Shown: positions 2,992 through 24,164, counted from the first letter of the stretch. The stretch is DNA of 64,000 nt from a virus (IMGVR_UViG_3300050821_003995:1-64000), one strand, 5' to 3'. Made by a program: numbers and translations. Notes: generated by a model not told the origin, from the sequence alone.

Positions 2992-4309
2992 AAGCGTTGA
3001 ACCTGTCCATACTGGTGGGGTCCTTCAGATTCAGCTTACCATTCCATGAAGAATTCAGCAAAAGGTTCTTCCCAACCGTTTGCCCACCAGGGGCCATTGC
3101 CTTGATGTCTGAAATCGTCCACAACGCCTTTGGGTCACCACTATTGATTAGTGTTTGTACATGCTGACCTAATTCAGGATCAAGGCCACCCCTCAACATC
3201 CCACCAAGACGACCATTCATAAAGCGTTGCAGGGCCGGCATATCCCTTTCCTGAGGAAGAAAGCCATACTTGGCCCAGGCGTACCCACCCACGTCAATGT
3301 TGGCAAACAAGTCGGCCGATTTCAGCCCCAATTTGTTGTAAGTATCGATTTGATTACCAAGCAACTGTTTGGCAAGCCCGCTTCCCTGATCTGACTTCTC
3401 ATAGAATTTCAAATAGCCATGGTGCGCTTGCCCGGTATCCATGTTTATTTCACGGGCAATCTGGCCTATTTGATCGCCATTCTTATTGACTAACCCACCT
3501 TCAAATTCCAGCGAATTTGGGTCATAGAAACCTTTTCTGAATGTCATATAATCGGGGCTGTGCATCCCAGCAAAATACTGATTGGCAAATGTTTCTTCGT
3601 CCATGTGTGGGGCAATGTGTTTGTCAAATAGGGCATTGGCCGCGTTGCTGCCCCTAAGGAACCCAGCCGGGCGCGTGATAACAGATGGGGCACTTATCTC
3701 TGGTTGTGGGGCCTGCGGATTGTGCCCGGCAACGTCAAAAATGGATGCGCCTGGGTTCTGCTGCAATGCACGAATGATGTCGTCGTCATTCAACTTTGGT
3801 GGCGGGGCACCCCGCTCATTGCTCATATTCCATCTGGCAAATTCGGCATCATTCATAACCCGGCCTATCGGCCCTGGGGCCTGTGCGGGTGCTGTACGTC
3901 CAATGTTTGGCTGTGGGGCAAGCGTCGGGGGTTGACGCGCAACAACATGCGACGGATCAAGTGCTTGCCGAATGTTTTGTACGGTCATAAACGAATTAGG
4001 ATCGCCCGGTGGGTATAGATGTGGGAATAGATCACCCATTTCACGGCCGGGGCCGGGGCCGGGGCCGGGTGGGCTGGCAAGTACGTCATGGACCTGCTGC
4101 CTCACCGGGGGCAGTTGAGGCACAGGCCCCGTCGCAGGCTCAGGCGTGGCCCTGGGCGGCGTCCGTGGCAATGAAGCACCACCCCCACCCAACAGCAACG
4201 CATTGGCCGCGTCTATTTGCAGTATGGGGGGTGGCTTTGGGCCGGGGAAGCCATAGAGGTCATTACCTGCACCACTAAGTGCTTGAATAACTTCGGCAGG
4301 AGAAGGCAT
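2978..4309 (-). CDS. Pro-rich N-terminus plus C-terminal GNAT-like domain; candidate injected effector
   Basis: QGSGLAKQLL (acetyl-CoA-binding motif A-like) and ANIDVGGYAWAKYGF in the C-terminal half. Confidence 0.6.
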   Translation of the reverse strand: MPSPAEVIQALSGAGNDLYGFPGPKPPPILQIDAANALLLGGGGASLPRTPPRATPEPATGPVPQLPPVRQQVHDVLASPPGPGPGPGREMGDLFPHLYPPGDPNSFMTVQNIRQALDPSHVVARQPPTLAPQPNIGRTAPAQAPGPIGRVMNDAEFARWNMSNERGAPPPKLNDDDIIRALQQNPGASIFDVAGHNPQAPQPEISAPSVITRPAGFLRGSNAANALFDKHIAPHMDEETFANQYFAGMHSPDYMTFRKGFYDPNSLEFEGGLVNKNGDQIGQIAREINMDTGQAHHGYLKFYEKSDQGSGLAKQLLGNQIDTYNKLGLKSADLFANIDVGGYAWAKYGFLPQERDMPALQRFMNGRLGGMLRGGLDPELGQHVQTLINSGDPKALWTISDIKAMAPGGQTVGKNLLLNSSWNGKLNLKDPTSMDRFNAYVRP

Positions 4310-4324
4310 TGAAGAGCGCCCTCT

Positions 4325-5302
4325 CTAAACACCCTGATTAGGGCCTACTGGGCCAGGAAAGAAACCATCTTGCACGTTGGCGGGCGATACAAAAATTGGG
4401 TTCACCCTAGAAACAAGCGGAATGGTAGGCGCCGCACCGTCACGGGCAATCAACCGCTTCACATAATCGATCCAGCGGTTTTGCTGAGTGACGTAGCTGC
4501 CAAAACCCTTGGCCTCCCAGAACATCCATTTGATGCCCATGATGACTGCGTTTTCGTCCAGCAAACACGCATCGTCGTCATTGACAAAATACTGCGCGAA
4601 GGCGGCACCATCCGCCACGTTGCCGTGCACGGCCACTGCCGCGATGCTCAAATACTCAAACACAAGCTGCAATGGAGACACAATCTCAGAAGGAGCCGGC
4701 CATATTCTGAACGTGCTAGGGTACGGGCCAATCTTGCGGAAATGCCTACGCGGCCCGGTGGCCACAATGCCTGAGCGGTGCCATTGATCCAGTTGCGGGC
4801 TATCAGGCCCGATCAATTCCCACCGGTTGGTGCGGTCCCACATGGTCCTGTTGTTGAACCAATCAAAGTCAGGTGGCACCGGGTAGGTGTCACGCATGAA
4901 CAGGATAGTCTGCCCGGTCATCAGGGCAGTATTTGTGTTCTCCATATTCAAAGTGACTTGGGTAGCCGAATCCACTGTTTGAATTCGTGCCGCCACCGGG
5001 AGGCCCGGCCCTGACACTTGCCAATAGTTGGGTGCAAATGCAGCCGTGGACGGAATATTCTGAATGACCGCCGATTGTGACGGCAGATCGCCCGTGGTAC
5101 TGGTGGGCACTTGCACAATCAGGTCATATTCAAACTGAAGGGCCGTCCACCTGTTCATGCGCCTGAGTTCGTCAAGCACACGGTTGGCCAACGCCCCCAT
5201 CTGCGCATCGGTATTGGTGGCGGCAGCCGTATAGGCGCTGGTGCCTACAGGCAGGCCAAGTTCCAGCTCGGCCTTTTGCACCATCTGCAAAATTGACAGC
5301 AC
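4325..5302 (-). CDS. head-tail adaptor (tail tubular A / P22 gp4-like)
   Basis: GTG start; N-terminal helices LSILQMVQKAELELGL, YPVPPDF and RIWPAP motifs typical of phage adaptors; synteny. Confidence 0.7.
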   Translation of the reverse strand: MLSILQMVQKAELELGLPVGTSAYTAAATNTDAQMGALANRVLDELRRMNRWTALQFEYDLIVQVPTSTTGDLPSQSAVIQNIPSTAAFAPNYWQVSGPGLPVAARIQTVDSATQVTLNMENTNTALMTGQTILFMRDTYPVPPDFDWFNNRTMWDRTNRWELIGPDSPQLDQWHRSGIVATGPRRHFRKIGPYPSTFRIWPAPSEIVSPLQLVFEYLSIAAVAVHGNVADGAAFAQYFVNDDDACLLDENAVIMGIKWMFWEAKGFGSYVTQQNRWIDYVKRLIARDGAAPTIPLVSRVNPIFVSPANVQDGFFPGPVGPNQGV

Positions 5303-10667: not shown

Positions 10668-13351
10668 TTACGCTGTCAACACACCCTGGAGAACAGTTTT
10701 GTTATCGTTTTGGCTCTTTATCCAAAACTTCTGCATGTTGCCATGCAGCTCGGACTATATCATCACCATTTGCGGTGCCGGGGGCTCGTGGCTGGGTTAT
10801 TCTTTCGTCACCAGCTAGTCTCTAGACCTTCCGCAGCCCTGGGCTTCACCCTACGTCTGCGGCTTGGTACGGGATTGTCTCATTTAAGAGGTTTTCCCCG
10901 TTTCACCCGGTTTTCCTCAGTTTAGTGGTAGGTCTGAGGGCGCGTCTCATTACACGCATTGGACAGGGTCATATTTCCAGCCCAACCAATTAATCTTACC
11001 ATGGCGTCTTGATTTATCGAGAAGCGGTCTGGATCAAGAGGAACCATGTTACGCCTCGCATGGGGTCTCCAATGTAGATATTTGGTATTGAGCATGTAGC
11101 CGGTGGTCGAAGGAGCACCGCCTACTGCACTTGTTGAAGATGACACCTGGGGTGGCAGCGGATCGCTGCTGAAGCCCTGGAAGCCACCATCCAGCACAAC
11201 GTCGCTGTTCAGGTACTTGAGAACCTGAAAGCCAGCCTCAGCCATGTCACCCGGCACTGCCTCAGGGCCAATCCGCTGAATGGATTGGAGGGCCTGGAGG
11301 TAGTACCTGTACATCACGTTATCCATGATGATCAGGTCAGGGTAGTCACGGCCACGGACGAGCTGCACCCACAGCGCGTTCATTTGGCTGATGATGTTTG
11401 CCGCACCCAGCGTGACGCCGCCGTTGGTGTTGGCGGACCACGCCTGATTGCGCCAGAACGTCCACTGTGCACGGTCAATACCTCCAACTGTACCGGAGGT
11501 TGGTGTGCTGGCCACCAAGAGCTGGAGGCCACCCACCGAGTTGGTCACCGTGCCGTCTCCGTAAACTCCCTGGCTCAATCCGTTCATGAACGTATCTTCC
11601 AGATATGTTAGCGTCCCTTTGTGAGGGACGCCGGGGATTTTAACATCCCCCTGCATATTCCTATGCAGCTCGGAGCACATCTTCCCTTCCGGGGTTGGCT
11701 CATGCTCTCTACGCGCGCCCAGAGCAAACTTGCTCTTGCTTGGTTCGGGATTGTCCTTCCGCGTTCCATTGGAACCGGGCATCGGATGTTCCCCGACTTC
11801 GCCAACATTCTGACTACGGCCTTTTAACTCCGTAGCAGGCCCAGCGCTTTATGCGCAAGCGTTCATGATGCGGGATTCGAGAAGGTCAATGATGGCCTCC
11901 TCACCAGAGTTTTGTAACTCCTCAAGGCCGGAGATGGATACCGCGACAGCCGCTTGGCGGATTGGGTACTCCGCCGCAGAGAACACTTGGGAAGGCGCGA
12001 TATTAAGCGTCTGGTACCCAGAATCGATATGTTATTTGTCGACCTGTTTATGATCGGCTTCTGCATGTCACCATGCAGTCCAGACTATCTCTTCCCTTTC
12101 GGGTTGGGCGCTCGTGGACCCGTTACTGCTTTCGCTCGGGGTCTAGTCGTTACACCTTCTGCACCCCTCCTATTCCTAAAAATAGTACGTGTGCAGCTTG
12201 GCTCGGTATTTACTCCACCACCTACCAGCGGTACTGTGGAGTGGTTCACCGACTTCACCCAAATTTCACTAGGAAGCCAATGCCAGCAAACCTGAGTACA
12301 CCATCGATCCGGCCTTGGAGAAAGACTGGATTTGAGTTCCCATGCACAATCTGCGGTAAGATTGTTTACCGCAGGGCATCACAAATAGCCCGTGGTATAG
12401 TCAAAACCTGCGGTGCTCCTGAATGCAAAAGCGCTTCAATGAGCGGTGATAAGAACCCTTTTTGGGGTAAATCACACCCACCAGAAGTACGCGACCGGAT
12501 CAAGACTGGCCGCGCTCTTGCAGTAAAACACAAACGCAAATCAGGACCGCCTAAAACCAACAAAGTCAGAATAGAACGTAAGAAAGCTGTCCGACTTCGT
12601 TGGTTTTCAAACCGGGATGTGATGCTGGCCGGTCTTAAGCCATCAGAAAAGGACAAAACCCGTGAGCAAAAGCGCTACAGATATTGCTTCACTCGATGGC
12701 AACGTGAGAACTGGACCGGTGACAAGTGTGCTTGGTGTGGCACTACGGATGATCTTGTACTTGACCACATCCTTCCAGTTGTATGTGGGGGCAAAAACAA
12801 ACGTACAAACGCACAAACACTTTGCCGACCGTGCAACTTATGGAAGATGGTCTACGTTGACCGCCCGCTGTATCTTGCTGGTTTAGGCCTCGAAGGAGGC
12901 TAGGGGTTTAACCCCACCACTGATATGTCTGATTATCGGCATAATTCAATTCCTGAACTATGGTCCGACCACCAGAAAACGTCTTCAGGTTCCTATGTTA
13001 GCCGCAGTGGCTCTTTATCCACTGCCTCAATGGCTTCACTTCACCATTGTTCGGACTATCTCTTCACCTTTCGGCGCTCCGCGCTCGTGGGTAGGTAGCT
13101 TTCACCCCCACCTAGTCTCTACACCTTCCATGCCCCTGAGCCTTGTTGGGCCTACGTGCATGGCTTGGCTCGGTATTAGCATCTCAGCCTTCACCGAATT
13201 CACGGAGTTACGTGGCAACCTAGATACAACTTTTACCACGCCTTGTGAGCCTCAGCAACGCTGCGTTGTTTCGGCTCATGTTATCAGCGAGTTCCCCGGT
13301 ACGATTTCGGAGAGTCGTAGTTACGATCTCCGATAAGTTTGGGAAGGCCAT
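10668..13351 (-). CDS. major capsid protein, 343 aa, join(13351-13235,12991-12916,12024-11858,11599-10954,10693-10668)
   Basis: Removing 4 introns gives one 1032-nt frame: MAFPNLSEIVTTTLRNRTGELADN...RRG/NLKTFSGG...YQW/YSGYQTL...RIMNA/EDTFMNG...TLSNA/FLQGVLTA; follows the scaffold gene. Confidence 0.93.
10694..10953 (-). mobile_element. group I intron 4 of MCP (260 nt, no ORF)
   Basis: P1 GCGU|GU:ACGCGC with U-G; P AAACGGGGAA, Q AAUCCCGUAC, R UAGAGACUA, S AUGAUAUAGUC; restores SNA-FLQG. Confidence 0.92.
11600..11857 (-). mobile_element. group I intron 3 of MCP (258 nt, no ORF, variant P7)
   Basis: U/G boundaries restore MNA-EDTF; P AAGUCGGGGAA, Q AAUCCCGAAC, P3 GUUGGC/GCCAAC, P7 GAGCA/UGCUC. 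Confidence 0.88.
12025..12915 (-). mobile_element. group I intron 2 of MCP (891 nt) carrying an antisense HNH gene
   Basis: U/G boundaries restore WYSGY; core AAGUCGGUGAA, AAUACCGAG, GUAACGACUA, AAGAGAUAGUC in about 12025-12270. Confidence 0.9.
12280..12903 (+). CDS. intron-borne HNH homing endonuclease (Zn-finger + NUMOD3-like + HNH), antisense to the intron
   Basis: CTICG..CGAPEC; GDKNPFWGKSH; CAWCG...DHILPVVCGGKN..TNAQTLCRPCN; AGGAAG before ATG 12280. Confidence 0.85.
   Translation: MPANLSTPSIRPWRKTGFEFPCTICGKIVYRRASQIARGIVKTCGAPECKSASMSGDKNPFWGKSHPPEVRDRIKTGRALAVKHKRKSGPPKTNKVRIERKKAVRLRWFSNRDVMLAGLKPSEKDKTREQKRYRYCFTRWQRENWTGDKCAWCGTTDDLVLDHILPVVCGGKNKRTNAQTLCRPCNLWKMVYVDRPLYLAGLGLEGG
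12992..13234 (-). mobile_element. group I intron 1 of MCP (243 nt, no ORF)
   Basis: Exon ends in U, intron ends in G; P1 CGUGGU:GCCACG with U-G; P10 AGGUU:AACCU; P AAUUCGGUGAA, Q AAUACCGAG, R GUAGAGACUA, S AAGAGAUAGUC. Confidence 0.93.
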
Positions 13352-13638: not shown

Positions 13639-14928
13639 TTATACACGCCCCGCCCGCTCAGCGACTTCGCGCTGCGCATCTTCAAGGGATTCACGCACGG
13701 ACTTGCCACGCTTCTGGTTCTTGGGCGCAGCGCCATTGGGCGCACCCGGTGCGCTGATGGGGATGCTACCTGACGCCTTGCGCGCAGCTTCCAGCTTCGT
13801 TCGTTGTGCGTCCTTTTCGGCCTGTGCCGCAGCAGCCTTGGTGGCCGCTTCGGCGTCAACCATGGCCTTCTGGGCTTTGGCGCGCACGGCCGGGTCGGCA
13901 TACACCGCCATATCGTAAGCTTTGTCCAAATCAGCATTGCCATTGGGCAACGGTGGCACCACGGCCGGTTCGCCGTTTGGCCCAGGTGACAGGAACTTCG
14001 CCATGAGGCCGCGCACTTCACCGTAAAATGGCTTGTCCTTGGACCACATGCCCAGCATTTCTTCGGTCTTCTGCATCGATTGCTGCTGGACCGTGGTGGC
14101 AAGCTGGTTGATGCCTTGACCCACCGGGGCAATGATCGAATCGATGTATGCCTTGACGGCAGGATCAAGCTGACCGTTCGGTTGACCCTGCGGGGCACCC
14201 TGTTGCTGCTGTTGAGCCTGCGGGTTCTGCACCATGTGGGCCAACAGCTTGACCGGGTCGATGCCGTAGCTCTGCGCCAGCGCGGCGAACACACCCTCGG
14301 GGGCTTTGCCAGCTTTCAAGCCCGCTGCTTCGCGGGTCAGTGCATCCATCCAGCCAAAGAGCTGCTTGACGGCAGCGGCAGGGGTGATCTTGTGATGCTG
14401 GATGGCCCCCAAGTAGGGCTGGATGGCACCATCAAGTTCGGCGTAGCCCTTCTTCAACTGCTCAACACCGGCCGCCATGTCGGTTTCGCGCTTGGCAACG
14501 GCAGCCTGTACGGCCGGGGGCACCTTGGCCCACTCAGCCTTGGCCTCTTTGGGCCAACCCTCAGGGGCAGCTATTTGCTGTTGTTCCTGCGGCTTCGGCT
14601 CTTGGCCTTCCTGCTCCCCCGCTTCAGGGTCCGGCGCTAGCCCTTCCTGACGGGCGCGGCTTTGCTGCTGACCTTTCTTGGGTTCGGGCTGAGCCTTGCG
14701 AGCTTTATTGGCAGCGCCCTCAAGCTGCTTGCGAAGCTTGCTGCGTCCACTACCTGGTCCTTCCGGCTGCTGTTCCTGCGGTTCCGGCTCCGCGCCCTCA
14801 ACTTCGCCACCCGTGTCGGCTGGCGGCGGGGCAGCCCCACCCGGCTCGGCGCCGGTATCAGCGCCCGCACCGGCACCTGTCTCGGGGGCATAGCAAGGAA
14901 GGGGACCGAATGTTCGCACCAACATCAC
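13639..14928 (-). CDS. capsid scaffolding protein
   Basis: Acidic disordered N-terminus, APEGW..EW motif, LDKAYDMAVYADP; lies between portal and MCP. Confidence 0.8.
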   Translation of the reverse strand: MMLVRTFGPLPCYAPETGAGAGADTGAEPGGAAPPPADTGGEVEGAEPEPQEQQPEGPGSGRSKLRKQLEGAANKARKAQPEPKKGQQQSRARQEGLAPDPEAGEQEGQEPKPQEQQQIAAPEGWPKEAKAEWAKVPPAVQAAVAKRETDMAAGVEQLKKGYAELDGAIQPYLGAIQHHKITPAAAVKQLFGWMDALTREAAGLKAGKAPEGVFAALAQSYGIDPVKLLAHMVQNPQAQQQQQGAPQGQPNGQLDPAVKAYIDSIIAPVGQGINQLATTVQQQSMQKTEEMLGMWSKDKPFYGEVRGLMAKFLSPGPNGEPAVVPPLPNGNADLDKAYDMAVYADPAVRAKAQKAMVDAEAATKAAAAQAEKDAQRTKLEAARKASGSIPISAPGAPNGAAPKNQKRGKSVRESLEDAQREVAERAGRV

Positions 14929-20097: not shown

Positions 20098-20557
20098 TCA
20101 GGTTGGTGTTCGTCTGATTGGGCTTGCCATAGGCACGGTTGAGGATCAAATCCGCCGCCTGCAACACCGCTGTGTCGGCCGCCGTAGGGTCATTGATGAC
20201 GTTGAAGGCCCGCTGCATGGCGGCGCTGGCGAACCGCCGCGCCATATCCTGAATTTCACGGGCTTCGCGTGCCACCGTCTCACGCAGCACAACCCTGGGA
20301 TGACGCGGGGGCTTGACTTTCATGTAACGTGACCTTCGTTTGGAGTAGATTGATATACCGTCCAACTCACCCTTAGCCGCTTTTTTGTTATGAATAGCCC
20401 AAGTCTTGCGTAATCCTTCCAACCGACGCGCATTGGCCTCAGGCGAGTAGTTTTCCGCTAGGCCAAATTGGCTGCCTTTCAATCTCTCTGACATGGCTTG
20501 ATGCTGCGGATAAGCCGTCAGTGTGGTTCGCCTGTCAAGTCTGTTCGGGGCGGTCAA
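19910..20557 (-). CDS. terminase small subunit candidate
   Basis: AADLILNRAYGKP motif; immediately upstream of and overlapping TerL. Confidence 0.65.
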   Translation of the reverse strand: MTAPNRLDRRTTLTAYPQHQAMSERLKGSQFGLAENYSPEANARRLEGLRKTWAIHNKKAAKGELDGISIYSKRRSRYMKVKPPRHPRVVLRETVAREAREIQDMARRFASAAMQRAFNVINDPTAADTAVLQAADLILNRAYGKPNQTNTNLNVDANGKISEVSGAELNQRIAEALKRVESIAGREQQALKGKKQPANLRKLDRNPHSPDEPVH

Positions 20558-21066
20558 TGCATCGCCTTCTTCATGCGCGCCAACAGCCTAGGATCATCGA
20601 CGTAAGGCGTCAAGTCGAGGTCTTTTGGCACCTTGATCAGTTTTTCGTGTTCGTCGGCCTTGATGTAGGGCCGGTAGGCTTCCTGATAGGGTTTCCAAAT
20701 AAGTCCAGCCTTCATGACCGCACGGCGCTCGTAGCCAGTGGCAGCCGCATGGGCATGGGCATACTTCCAGCCCAGGGCATCAATCACGGCCTTCTCAAAC
20801 GATTCGTGATCAATCAAGAACTGACGAACGTTGTATTCTTTGGTTTTGCCATCGTGGTGGTACGAAAACATTTCAGGAAGGTGCCGGTCAATGTAAATGA
20901 CCTTCCCGTCCTCGGAATAGCCAGCCAAATATGGCAGGTCGAAGTCGTCACAGAGCCGCTCATACCTGTGCAGCCGGCTCCTGATCTCAGGGTCCTTCTC
21001 AAGGCGCGTAACCAGCAACGTGCTCTGGCTGCCGGCCGCTTCCACATGTCTATGGCCTGTTGACAC
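20554..21066 (-). CDS. HExxE zincin-like protein
   Basis: IDHESFE...YAHAHAAATGYE pattern. Confidence 0.5.
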   Translation of the reverse strand: MSTGHRHVEAAGSQSTLLVTRLEKDPEIRSRLHRYERLCDDFDLPYLAGYSEDGKVIYIDRHLPEMFSYHHDGKTKEYNVRQFLIDHESFEKAVIDALGWKYAHAHAAATGYERRAVMKAGLIWKPYQEAYRPYIKADEHEKLIKVPKDLDLTPYVDDPRLLARMKKAMH

Positions 21067-21346
21067 TAGGGGCCTTCATTCTGCTACCCACCCGGTGAGC
21101 GTTCGGTACGCCTGATAACCTGTAGTGACCCTTACGGGCGTGCGGTGGATGTCCGTATCCGTGGGCACCCTTAACGTGACCATGCTGAAAAGGCTTGGGC
21201 AACGTGCCTACACCGTGCATGACACCGGGCGTCTCAGGCACTGAGGGCGCCGCGTAATTGCCAACCCCAGGCCCAGGGATAGGATTTGTGCCGGCGATTT
21301 GGTTCGCCGGAACCGCTGGGGTCTGACTATAAAACCTCTTGGGCAC
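21050..21346 (-). CDS. small Gly/His/Pro-rich basic protein
   Basis: C-terminal GAHGYG..RKGHYRLSG..AHRVG shared with the upstream gene. Confidence 0.65.
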   Translation of the reverse strand: MPKRFYSQTPAVPANQIAGTNPIPGPGVGNYAAPSVPETPGVMHGVGTLPKPFQHGHVKGAHGYGHPPHARKGHYRLSGVPNAHRVGSRMKAPSVNRP

Positions 21347-22084
21347 TTATCTCTTTCCCAGCATGTGCGCCCCGGAATGTCCCGAGACGCGGTGAGCGCC
21401 CCGCCTGTGTGTACCGGTGAAACCGTGCGCACCGCTGGTGGCCGGCATTTTGAAGCTGTGTGCTGGCCCCATGCCGTGACCGATATGGTGTTCAGCAATG
21501 TCCTTGCTGCCCGCACCAATGGGTTTGCCGTGGGGCTGCTTCTCATGCCCCTCACCATCCTCATGTACCAAATGACTGCCACGCTTCTCACTTCCCACAT
21601 TAGCTACGGGTTTCATTGAGTGTCCTTCCTTGCCATGGGCTTCACTGCCCCAATGCTCACGCTGCTCGCCAGCAAAGCTCTGGCCTGAATGCCCCTGTGG
21701 GCCGTCATGAATGCCGATTGACTTGCCGCCCGGCTGCTTGGCCTGCTTGCCGCCGTCGTATTTGCCATACGGGGGCTTGCCCTCACGCTTGAAACCTGGG
21801 TTCCCCGGAAAGTGCCCACTACGGTCGTAGTTCTTTTCCTTCTTGGGTTTTGACTGACCACTTTCGGACAGCGCAATAGCCTGCGCTTGTTTGGGGTTGG
21901 TCACCACTGGGCCTTTGGGCGATCCTGAATGAAGTTCCCCTTGTCCAAACTTGTGCATCTCAGTTTTGACAACCTTGCGCTTCTGCGCCTTGGTGCGCGT
22001 GGGGCCTACGGGCATCGCCTTGCTCCTGTTCCGCAACGTAGTTGTTGCTATTTCGCTTAAATTCGGGTTTGGTGAGTTGACCAT
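21347..22084 (-). CDS. MCP-N-arm-tagged, DUF6496-like, His/Gly/Lys-rich protein
   Basis: PNLSEIATTTLRNR matches MCP; EMHKFGQGELHSGS..VTNPKQAQAIALSE resembles DUF6496. Confidence 0.75.
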   Translation of the reverse strand: MVNSPNPNLSEIATTTLRNRSKAMPVGPTRTKAQKRKVVKTEMHKFGQGELHSGSPKGPVVTNPKQAQAIALSESGQSKPKKEKNYDRSGHFPGNPGFKREGKPPYGKYDGGKQAKQPGGKSIGIHDGPQGHSGQSFAGEQREHWGSEAHGKEGHSMKPVANVGSEKRGSHLVHEDGEGHEKQPHGKPIGAGSKDIAEHHIGHGMGPAHSFKMPATSGAHGFTGTHRRGAHRVSGHSGAHMLGKR

Positions 22085-22085
22085 T

Positions 22086-22922
22086 TCAATATCTCACAAG
22101 AACAAAGCCCTGCGTACCCGCACCGCCCGAGCCGGTGCCATCAACATTGCTCGGGCCACCGCCACCGCCACCGCCGCCGTAGCCAATAGTTGGTGCGGCG
22201 CCAGATGTAGGGGTTGAGTTGCCGCCCGCCCCTCCATTGCCCCAATAAGATGTGGCACCACCACCGCCGCCCGATGTACCTGTCCCGCCAGCGCCGGCAG
22301 CAAAACCACCAAGTGCAGCACCATTACCACCACTTGATGCCGCGCTGCCACCACCGCCACCGCCGCCGCCTGCACGAGCATAAAATCCTGGTGTAGTTGC
22401 ACCGGCAGCACCGCCATTACCGGCCACAGCACCGCCAACACCACCTGCTGAGCCTCCACCGGCACCCCCAACTCCTCCAGTGGTACCCGTAGTCCCAACC
22501 CCAGGGAGACCACCCGTTAACGACGGAAATGAACTATTTGCCCCAGTAATTGTTGTGGCCCCACCCTGCACACCTGTCACGTTGTGTGCACCACCAGTAC
22601 CCGCAATGCCAACCGTGATAGTAAGCGTGGCCCCAGCCGTGACGTTTAGCGGATAGCCGCCAGTGCATTGTGCTGAGCCACCGCCACCACCACCGGCATT
22701 CGCGCCGGTCGCGCCGCCACCACCGCCACCGCCACCGCCGCCACAACCATCAACGTAGATAACAGTCACACCACCCGGAACCACCCATGAGTTCGCACCG
22801 GTCGTGGTGAAAAGTTTGGAGGTTTGTGCGTAGGCAGGGAACCCGACTTCGGCGTAGGCAAAATTTGTCAGCAAAATCGAAGTGAGCAACAGCCCCGCAA
22901 GGAATGTGCTTATCTTTTTCAT
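22086..22922 (-). CDS. glycine-rich fibre-like protein with signal peptide
   Basis: MKKISTFLAGLLLTSILLTNFAYA-E; WVVPGGVT...GGGGGG...GFVLVRY Gly-rich phage fibre domain. Confidence 0.75.
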   Translation of the reverse strand: MKKISTFLAGLLLTSILLTNFAYAEVGFPAYAQTSKLFTTTGANSWVVPGGVTVIYVDGCGGGGGGGGGGATGANAGGGGGGSAQCTGGYPLNVTAGATLTITVGIAGTGGAHNVTGVQGGATTITGANSSFPSLTGGLPGVGTTGTTGGVGGAGGGSAGGVGGAVAGNGGAAGATTPGFYARAGGGGGGGGSAASSGGNGAALGGFAAGAGGTGTSGGGGGATSYWGNGGAGGNSTPTSGAAPTIGYGGGGGGGGPSNVDGTGSGGAGTQGFVLVRY

Positions 22923-22923
22923 G

Positions 22924-23814
22924 TTACCAAATCCTGTACGCGAGCTTGTGCCCTGTTGTCGCACACATGACGTGCGGGATGCCGGGCTTATAAGCATCGG
23001 GGGATTTTACCCATCCACCATTGGCTGCAAGAACATCACCCGTGCTACTTGACGCCGCCGTACCCTCTGACACGTTGCACGACTCGGACGGGTCGGGATT
23101 TGAAATCTGGAAACCATTCGTCGGCGTCGCCAGTGTCTGATCGACACCGCCGGTCGCAATGGTGATCTGCGAATAGGTTCCGGCCTGACCAATGTTTACT
23201 GCTTGAGAAGTCGGGAAGCTATCACTCGACACCGTGACGCGCGGGATACCGGCACCACCTGTACCCGTTCCGGTCACAACATTCGCACCACCAAATTGGG
23301 TTACGTTGTCAACCCAAGGGGACGTGCCCTGATTGGCTGTGACAGTGCCACCACCACCGTTGGTGCTGGCACCACCACCAATTGTCGTGGCCGCAATGGT
23401 GACCGTAGCCGCCGCCGTGGCAACCGTGTTGCCGCGTGCTCTTGCGGCACAAAAGCCAACTGCCGAACCTTGGAATACACCGTTAGCCGTGATGGTTGAC
23501 TGCCCGGTGGTTGAGTTAAGCGGATACACCTGAAGGGTGGACCACGTACCAGCACTGTCACAACTTTGCACTTCAGGAACGATGGTGCCCGACCAACTAC
23601 CCGTTACCGTAAAGGTGAAAGTGCCATAAGCACCAAACAGGCTCAGCGGATCGGTAACCTTCGCACCAACCGATACTGTGCCGGTGCCGGGTGACGTGGG
23701 GATGGTACCAAAATTGACCTGTGAGCCAAGTGTAACTTGATTGCCCTGCGCAAACGCCCCACAAAGCGAAGCAAACAAGAAGAAGCCGGTAAGAAATGCC
23801 CTCAGCTTGCCCAT
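22924..23814 (-). CDS. Thr/Gly/Ser-rich beta protein with signal peptide
   Basis: MGKLRAFLTGFFLFASLCGAFA-Q; composition resembles virion appendage proteins. Confidence 0.7.
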   Translation of the reverse strand: MGKLRAFLTGFFLFASLCGAFAQGNQVTLGSQVNFGTIPTSPGTGTVSVGAKVTDPLSLFGAYGTFTFTVTGSWSGTIVPEVQSCDSAGTWSTLQVYPLNSTTGQSTITANGVFQGSAVGFCAARARGNTVATAAATVTIAATTIGGGASTNGGGGTVTANQGTSPWVDNVTQFGGANVVTGTGTGGAGIPRVTVSSDSFPTSQAVNIGQAGTYSQITIATGGVDQTLATPTNGFQISNPDPSESCNVSEGTAASSSTGDVLAANGGWVKSPDAYKPGIPHVMCATTGHKLAYRIW

Positions 23815-23825
23815 TGCCCTGCTTC

Positions 23826-24164
23826 CTATTTTAGGAGTTCAACGCTCACCGGGCCTAGCCCGGCCAAATGCAACATATTGGCAACCGCCAATGTTACATC
23901 GAGAATTCTATGTTTCTTATATGGCCCCCTGTCGTTTATCCTTGCCACCACGTGATACCTGCCGTGTTTGACCAGCACCTTGGAGCCTAACGGCCACGTG
24001 CGGTGTGCCACCGTCAAGGCGCGATCATTCATGCGCTCACCTGAAGCCGTCCATTTGTTGTGGCGTTCATGGGACGTGTACACGCTGGCAATACCATTTT
24101 GCGCCCCAGCCGTGCCCGTGAGTGCTATCAACAGTGCAAGCGCGGCGGGGGTAGCGCGTCCCAT
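23826..24164 (-). CDS. rlpA: RlpA-like (double-psi beta-barrel) lytic transglycosylase
   Basis: TASGE...LTVAHRTWPLGS...RINDRGPY...RILDVT; signal peptide. Confidence 0.9.
   Translation of the reverse strand: MGRATPAALALLIALTGTAGAQNGIASVYTSHERHNKWTASGERMNDRALTVAHRTWPLGSKVLVKHGRYHVVARINDRGPYKKHRILDVTLAVANMLHLAGLGPVSVELLK

Follow-up and report, generated by a model that had tools for sequence, protein, structure and literature searches.

The capsid targeting sequence (CTS) of bacteriophage T4 targets the scaffolding core, copies no capsid protein and is removed by the prohead protease. As a short N-terminal peptide on otherwise unrelated, often basic proteins (IPI-III and Alt), it directs them to the prohead, and its fusion to a foreign protein leads to encapsidation of that protein (PMC3012670). 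Other systems depend on the N-terminal arm of the capsid protein (MCP) itself. In P22, scaffold residues R293 and K296 touch D14, E15 and E18 of the N-arm, which forms the scaffold-docking site of the inner surface, and during maturation the arm refolds to a loop that reaches the neighbouring subunit (PMC9965877). In 80alpha, the 'helix-and-hook' of the scaffold packs on the N-arm helix of the MCP, where CpmB of SaPI1 competes (PMC5644958); in HK97 and BPP-1, the N-terminal peptide of the MCP docks by strand augmentation on adjacent subunits or a cement protein (PMC3863775). Capsid-interior address tags (T4 CTS) and docking-motif mimicry (CpmB) are therefore already known. A tag that copies the phage's own capsid arm is another matter: our literature search on capsid-arm mimic tags returned only work on the T4 CTS and nanotechnology reviews, and we found no description of such a tag.

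We analysed a 64,000-nucleotide stretch of a viral record (IMGVR_UViG_3300050821_003995, positions 1-64000; hereafter the window). An ORF at 21347..22084 on the minus strand encodes, as its long, tagged isoform, a protein of 245 aa that consists of the tag, a DUF6496 domain, a His/Gly/Lys-rich tail and a C-terminal motif. Its N-terminal extension (residues 1-23, 22016..22084, minus strand) bears a copy of the MCP arm, with the core PNLSEIATTTLRNR at 22025-22066. Tag residues 7-20, PNLSEIATTTLRNR (nt 22066-22025), correspond to residues 4-17 of MCP exon 1, PNLSEIVTTTLRNR (nt 13342-13301). The two peptides are identical at 13 of 14 residues, but their DNA agrees at only 25 of 42 nucleotides, and 12 of the 13 common residues use different codons, including Ser (AGC vs TCG). 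When the window was shuffled 100 times, the best six-frame match to the 14-mer reached 6-8 of 14 positions and never more than 8, compared with the observed 13. A profile built from MCP residues 1-42 finds the tag at E 4e-9 among 15,653 ORFs. The initial annotation had reported this match and its codon differences, and had argued that the copy is no recent DNA duplication; each of these points was confirmed, and the copy is old. Tag residues 2-22 are the only part of the protein that matches phrog_9953 (profile positions 2-22 of 329, E 0.094). The 245-aa protein is a carrier of an MCP fragment and is not itself an MCP, having no full-length match to phrog_9953 or the HK97 fold. The tag covers only the first ~17 residues of the arm, and the helix that follows in the MCP is missing.

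The original N-arm lies in MCP exon 1, which comprises 39 codons (13235..13351, minus strand, in a short ORF at 13220..13351, core at 13301-13342). Exon 2 is found in the ORF at 10922..11782 on the same strand and belongs to the phrog_9953 major head protein family (2.3e-53). Three matches to group I introns (Rfam Intron_gpI) at 13030-13263, 12061-12334 and 10731-11002, all on the minus strand, split the gene. In a related 96-kb phage (L008), the MCP is uninterrupted and 343 aa long, with residues 1-39 as in exon 1; both observations bear out the earlier view that the MCP of the window is intron-split. Within the interrupted stretch, the other strand carries an ORF for an HNH endonuclease (12073-12903), and in another phage, L018, the MCP is interrupted directly after exon 1. 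The MCP family includes proteins of Myxococcus phage Mx8, Bradyrhizobium phage ppBjS10J-1 and Stenotrophomonas phage BUCT555. The arm is the same or related in ppBjS10J-1 and more divergent in BUCT555.

Across 31 distinct DNA versions, the MCP arm shows a pS of 0.75 and a pN of 0.05 (pN/pS 0.07), and it is near-invariant across MCPs that are ~50-65% identical overall. Arm-bearing MCPs were found in soil and marine records and in prophage-like regions of Rhizobium, Methylobacterium and Inquilinus assemblies. Near-invariance of the arm among MCPs that are only ~50% identical implies a tightly constrained contact. The structure model of the MCP has the HK97 fold, with low confidence for the first 27 residues. 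A fold search with the MCP gave generic HK97-fold matches, the best being cyanophage Mic1 (6j3q) at 20% identity, which do not inform the location of the arm, and a sequence search of the intact MCP against the PDB gave nothing at E<=1.

The tag is very probably a translated peptide under purifying selection. Its 14 codons occur in 17 distinct DNA versions in related phages, with a pS of 0.74, a pN of 0.19 and a pN/pS of 0.26. Little or no change is seen at Pro1, Glu5, Thr8-Thr10, Asn13 and Arg14, although the codons at these positions vary without constraint, and we read the tag as translated and selected because residues stay fixed and codons drift over these 17 versions. In the readable DNA of the relatives, the upstream frame is open as far as a start codon that precedes the conserved Pro by 3-6 codons. 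Part of the conservation has another source, as that of the Asn-Arg-Ser codons is explained by a Shine-Dalgarno sequence (SD) embedded in them and not by the peptide. Variant tags such as F-S-E-I-V-T-T-T-R-Q-N-R are present on long contigs (P0010, P0032, P0014 and others), with changes of Leu to Phe and of Leu-Arg to Arg-Gln.

The codons also speak to the age of the tag. Its Ser is written AGY and has Thr, Asn and Gly as variants, where TCN prevails in MCP arms; this indicates one old acquisition with a lineage of its own rather than repeated fresh copies. This pattern points to a tag that stayed MCP-like after that single event. Between tags and MCP arms, pS is 0.85. The initial annotation had called the copy recoded; the codons do differ, but the differences equal ordinary synonymous saturation after an old acquisition, so we reject deliberate recoding in the proper sense. 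A chance MCP fragment or recombination scar is likewise rejected, given purifying selection on the tag in 17 lineages. Homologues lacking the extension had been named as the sign of such a fragment. They do exist (L018, L017, L048 and L077), but most relatives keep the tag under purifying selection. Co-variation of the tag with the MCP of the same genome could be compared in three genomes that show both (the window, L008 and L014), a comparison without power since the MCP arm hardly varies and is almost invariant in its 31 distinct DNAs. One anecdotal hint comes from L008: an Ile that is constant elsewhere is replaced there by Val in the MCP and by Leu in the tag.

Behind the tag, residues 36-76 (21857..21979, minus strand) form a DUF6496 domain, a small helix-hairpin-helix unit (Pfam PF20106, E 2.1e-6) that belongs to the family with 28.4 bits against a gathering cut-off of 24. 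Residues 85-245 (21350..21832, minus strand) make up the basic tail, defined by its His/Gly/Lys-rich composition. The tail ends in the motif R-x-S-G-H-S-G-A-H-x-x-G-x-R (21350-21391, minus strand), in which R232, S234, G235, A239, H240 and G243 are invariant. The whole protein has a pI of 10.1 and contains 16% G, 11% K and 9% H. In an AlphaFold2 (AF2) model based on 45 homologues, only residues ~31-80 are confident (pLDDT 85-91) and the tail is not (pLDDT about 45-55); the tail is probably disordered. The initial description of a DUF6496-like segment followed by a disordered H/G/K-rich tail is upheld in its first half and, as regards disorder, is probable. A fold search with the model of the 245-aa protein reached Z 3.1 at most, without a meaningful match for DUF6496, and look-alikes in a protein atlas were small viral DUF6496 clusters, all scoring <0.9 and to be taken as leads only. 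No paper on DUF6496 was found in the literature search. Typical DUF6496 proteins found here differ from the tagged one in being ~55-90 aa long, with neither tag nor His/Gly tail (e.g. L020, 1353-1529).

A protein search returned 111 homologues of the 245-aa protein, and comparison among relatives shows that its parts are exchanged. The tag is kept when the middle changes from DUF6496 to a phrog_16759 module, a Pro/Lys linker (L059) or an Ala/Lys peptide (L057); the phrog_16759 module weakly resembles the N-terminal part of proteins annotated as virion structural components. Minimal forms of 95-117 aa retain the tag, DUF6496 and the C-terminal motif. Conversely, L017 has the tail gene only, L077 has a plain DUF6496-tail protein and L048 possibly a decayed tag. 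Given that the close relatives L018 and L017 lack the tag on their DUF6496/tail protein, the tag is an accessory, dispensable extension, as judged from these comparisons. In some relatives, the tag, the middle domain and the His/Gly tail have ORFs of their own or are present twice: L055 combines a truncated copy that is tagged with a full copy that is not (2749-2930 and 3500-4522), L012 has such separate or duplicated ORFs at 3412-3699 and 4286-4711, and in L057 (2192-2963) the tag is fused to an Ala/Lys-rich peptide in a small ORF of its own. The phage collection contained no tagged homologue in a cultured phage, its sole match being a DUF6496 stretch in an uncultured record.

A scan of the whole genome revealed a third copy of the arm, outside the window, at the C-terminus of a basic protein of 128 aa (genome 74743-75129 = L079:8744-9130, plus strand). 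Aligned with MCP residues 3-39, the final 37 residues of this protein are identical at 23 of 37, with only 3 codons in common; against the profile of MCP residues 1-42 the protein has an E of 1.4e-11. The C-terminal arm is kept in two database homologues (P0117 and P0118) and in the syntenic 155-aa gene of the L017 phage (L080:1492-1959), and a partial ORF at the edge of L020 has an arm-like C-terminus. Unrelated Gln-rich tails take the place of the arm in an adjacent paralogue (L079:9127-9768) and in the homologue of the L008 phage; closely related phages do without the arm on this family (L085). The gene is located between a RusA-like resolvase and an SbcD-like nuclease, with a UvsX-like gene nearby, in a recombination/replication block. 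The arm peptide is accordingly common to the MCP, the N-terminus of the 245-aa protein and the C-terminus of the 128-aa protein, that is, to two accessory carriers of which one is not N-terminal. In these alignments the arm has the character of a portable module that two unrelated proteins have acquired, one at its N-terminus and the other at its C-terminus. Its position at the C-terminus of the 128-aa protein favours a binding peptide over a signal bound to the N-terminus.

The tagged gene itself lies among structural genes. The source record, of a soil phage, is 95,021 bp long and labelled linear, and its first and last ~145 bases (1-145 and 94877-95021) have the same sequence; this overlap implies an essentially complete genome, either a circular assembly or a terminally redundant one. 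The late block runs from Gly-rich fibre-like genes through the tagged gene, a 98-aa basic gene, a 170-aa gene and a probable small terminase to the large terminase, the portal, a scaffold-like gene and the MCP. On the 5' side of the tagged gene (22086-24164, minus strand), the genes encode a Gly_rich_2 protein (PF21722), a 296-aa protein rich in Thr and Gly, and a DPBB_1 (RlpA-like) protein. The conserved neighbour on the other side (21050..21346, minus strand) encodes 98 aa, is Pro/Gly/His-rich and basic (pI 11.1), and its product ends in R-x-S-G...A-H-x-x-G, a sequence related to the C-terminal motif of the tagged protein. This pair of genes is kept in L017 (6538-6813 and 6813-7106) and L018 (9974-10270 and 10270-10533). 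The 170-aa gene (20554-21066, minus strand), flanked by the basic pair and the probable small terminase, encodes a protein with a His-rich N-terminus and an H-E-x-x-E stretch; it is kept in L017 (7106-7642) and absent at the same place in L018. Apart from the arm itself, the 128-aa, 98-aa and 170-aa proteins have no PHROGs or Pfam match.

Directly 5' of the MCP, a scaffold-like gene (13639..14928, minus strand), recognized by position and composition, is a candidate partner of the arm. Scaffold-like proteins from ~30 loci are ~25% identical overall, and their C-termini conserve S-[VL]-x-G-S and S-[VIL]-R-[ED]-x-L-x-x-A. The second motif looks helix-like and would be circumstantial support for a contact with the arm. 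A complex prediction with the last 100 aa of the scaffold and tag residues 1-45 gave no answer (score 0.00, controls not run) and weighs neither way.

Phages lambda (C/Nu3) and Mu (I/Z) produce from one frame two products that share their C-terminal part, the long form adding an N-terminal function in head assembly. The tagged gene has a similar nested, in-frame layout with two starts, although the extra part of the lambda and Mu proteins is a protease domain of hundreds of residues and here it is a 20-residue arm copy. The internal ATG (Met24; 22013..22015, minus strand) begins a predicted short isoform of 222 aa, and Met24-Pro25 is invariant in 45 aligned homologues. Its AGGAG Shine-Dalgarno (22023..22027, minus strand) is encoded within the tag's Asn-Arg-Ser codons and is separated from the ATG by 7 nt. 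In all 14 tagged loci examined, an AGGAG, GGAG or AGGA-type element built from the tag's Asn-Arg-Ser/Arg codons lies ~4-11 nt 5' of the internal start, which is GTG at one locus. The final Arg of the tag is AGG in 11 of 17 tags, compared with 1 of 31 MCP arms. The start of the tag itself has little or no SD in most loci and none that is clear in the window. The TGA stop of the upstream Gly-rich structural gene (22086..22088, minus strand) precedes the tag ATG (22084-22082) by 1 nt (TGA-A-ATG), and at 8 of 14 loci the tag start stands -1 to +2 nt from the upstream stop, including TGATG overlaps. The window's own protein had been gene-called as the 222-aa short form, relatives are mostly called from the internal Met, and tagless relatives start exactly there, L018 having a stop 2 codons 5' of it. 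The layout is thus that of a two-start gene, in which a conserved internal start with its SD is combined with an open and conserved extension. Tagged and untagged isoforms had been proposed from the AGGAG and the ATG at 22015 of the window, and the same design recurs in every tagged homologue examined.

This arrangement suggests that the tag start is translationally coupled to the upstream gene, which in the window appears to be the Gly_rich_2 gene (PF21722). Ribosomes ending the upstream structural gene would occasionally re-initiate at the abutting ATG and yield a rare long form, while most would use the internal Met behind its strong SD and yield the untagged basic protein of DUF6496 and tail. 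The simplest reading of a strong internal SD together with an SD-poor tag start at the upstream stop is that termination-reinitiation yields the long form in small amounts, while the internal site yields the short form in abundance. During head assembly, the arm copy might then dock at the site normally held by the MCP arm, for which the candidates are the C-terminal helix of the scaffold and, at the inner face, an adjacent capsid subunit. A few copies of the basic protein would in this way be tethered in the procapsid, where the tail could touch DNA.

Our favoured reading, for which we consider the case evenly balanced, is that the arm copy is a docking peptide, or address tag, that brings the rare long form into the assembling head. 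The tag is kept though the middle domain changes, and the gene lies in the late block just 5' of the terminase and portal genes. On the other side, sister phages dispense with the tag, and it lacks the helix that is the contact of the scaffold in P22 and 80alpha. The detachable arm peptides of P22, HK97 and BPP-1, which bind scaffold and then subunits or cement, offer a site that a copy could occupy, but those contacts belong to the MCP itself, and an arm copy on a non-capsid protein is not described there (PMC9965877, PMC3863775). For the binding partner of the tag, its presence in virions and the role of the protein in the virion, we infer rather than observe, and the DNA-condensing and metal-binding functions proposed initially are putative roles suggested by composition alone. 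The interpretation offered by the initial annotation is partly supported, whereas its factual elements were all correct.

The same mimicry could serve to regulate assembly and not to carry cargo. Arm copies might bind the scaffold or the MCP as competitors and so delay, cap or size-tune heads. Such a role draws on the logic that also underlies the docking model, the 128-aa carrier is encoded in the recombination/replication block and so may precede the late genes, and in 80alpha/SaPI1 the mimicry of a docking motif redirects assembly (PMC5644958). However, the tagged isoform, having no SD of its own and depending on coupling, is probably scarce relative to the MCP, the most abundant late protein, and sister phages do without the tag. 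Because of the low stoichiometry predicted for the tagged form, an anchor fits better than a competitor, and we regard a regulator as improbable, if less so for the 128-aa protein.

The maturation pathway bears on another explanation. We found no match to the prohead proteases Peptidase_S78 or S49 in the complete genome; a search for S77 matched none of the control genomes and is hence uninformative for this one. The MCP starts directly with the arm and, as read from its gene, has no propeptide. With no S78 or S49 protease detected, assembly looks scaffold-dependent and free of proteolysis. In Staphylococcus phage 80alpha, capsid and scaffold proteins have a common N-terminal sequence, and one host protease trims both. 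Likewise, the arm might be a recognition signal for a third factor with the MCP as its substrate, be it a chaperone or an enzyme that modifies or processes it, and copies of the arm would recruit the same factor to other proteins. The 80alpha precedent and the extreme invariance of the MCP arm would fit a conserved factor of this kind. Nevertheless, the arm stands at the C-terminus in the 128-aa family, which argues against signals tied to the N-terminus, and the lack of a detected S78 or S49 protease and of a propeptide argues against processing; we find a shared recognition signal unlikely.

Capsid-sensing defences exist, and detached copies of the arm might titrate or mask a host sensor of an invariant capsid peptide. 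The arm is invariant over a broad MCP family in soil, marine and rhizobial prophage records, and one of its carriers is encoded among non-late genes, as an immune decoy could be. However, a copy that bears the trigger would be expected to activate such a sensor rather than block it, the tagged gene is weakly initiated and belongs to the late block, and we saw no defence-related gene context, which makes a decoy very unlikely. Slightest of all is the chance that the extension is a leader with no docking role, kept for its SD and coupling and MCP-like by the accident of capturing an MCP 5' end: the SD does sit in the tag's last codons, stop and start overlap at many loci, gene callers skip the extension and tagless forms exist, but Pro, Glu-Ile and Thr-Thr-Thr, far from the SD, are held at the protein level despite codon saturation, a functionless peptide would not remain MCP-like so long, and an independent arm copy on another protein family is equally conserved.

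A docking peptide would place this locus near two described systems and apart from both. It resembles the T4 CTS as a short peptide on accessory proteins. In contrast to the CTS, the peptide copies the arm of the MCP itself, is carried by a predicted minor isoform only and also occurs at a C-terminus, and the genome has no S78 or S49 prohead protease that was detected. The scaffold of 80alpha and CpmB of SaPI1 provide the other likeness, a terminal docking motif copied to a second protein at the capsid-scaffold interface of the MCP N-arm (PMC5644958). In that case a parasite has copied the scaffold side and alters capsid size; here it is the capsid side, the arm itself, that a phage has put on accessory proteins of its own. 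More broadly, and with slightly less assurance than for the docking role itself, we propose that arm copies may be an either-end docking module that loads or tethers a changing set of accessory proteins in the heads of scaffold-dependent phages with no prohead protease detected. They would then form a cargo-tag system that arose in nature and differs from the T4 CTS.

The near-invariance of the arm marks an assembly contact that is worth a structural solution. If arm copies do act as docking peptides, they would account for unannotated upstream extensions that small phage genes keep and gene callers miss, and they would offer a natural tag of ~20 residues for loading the capsids of a very widespread MCP family, known from soil, marine and rhizobial prophage records. 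They would also show by what route accessory proteins reach the head interior in phages that have no core or prohead protease of the T4 style.
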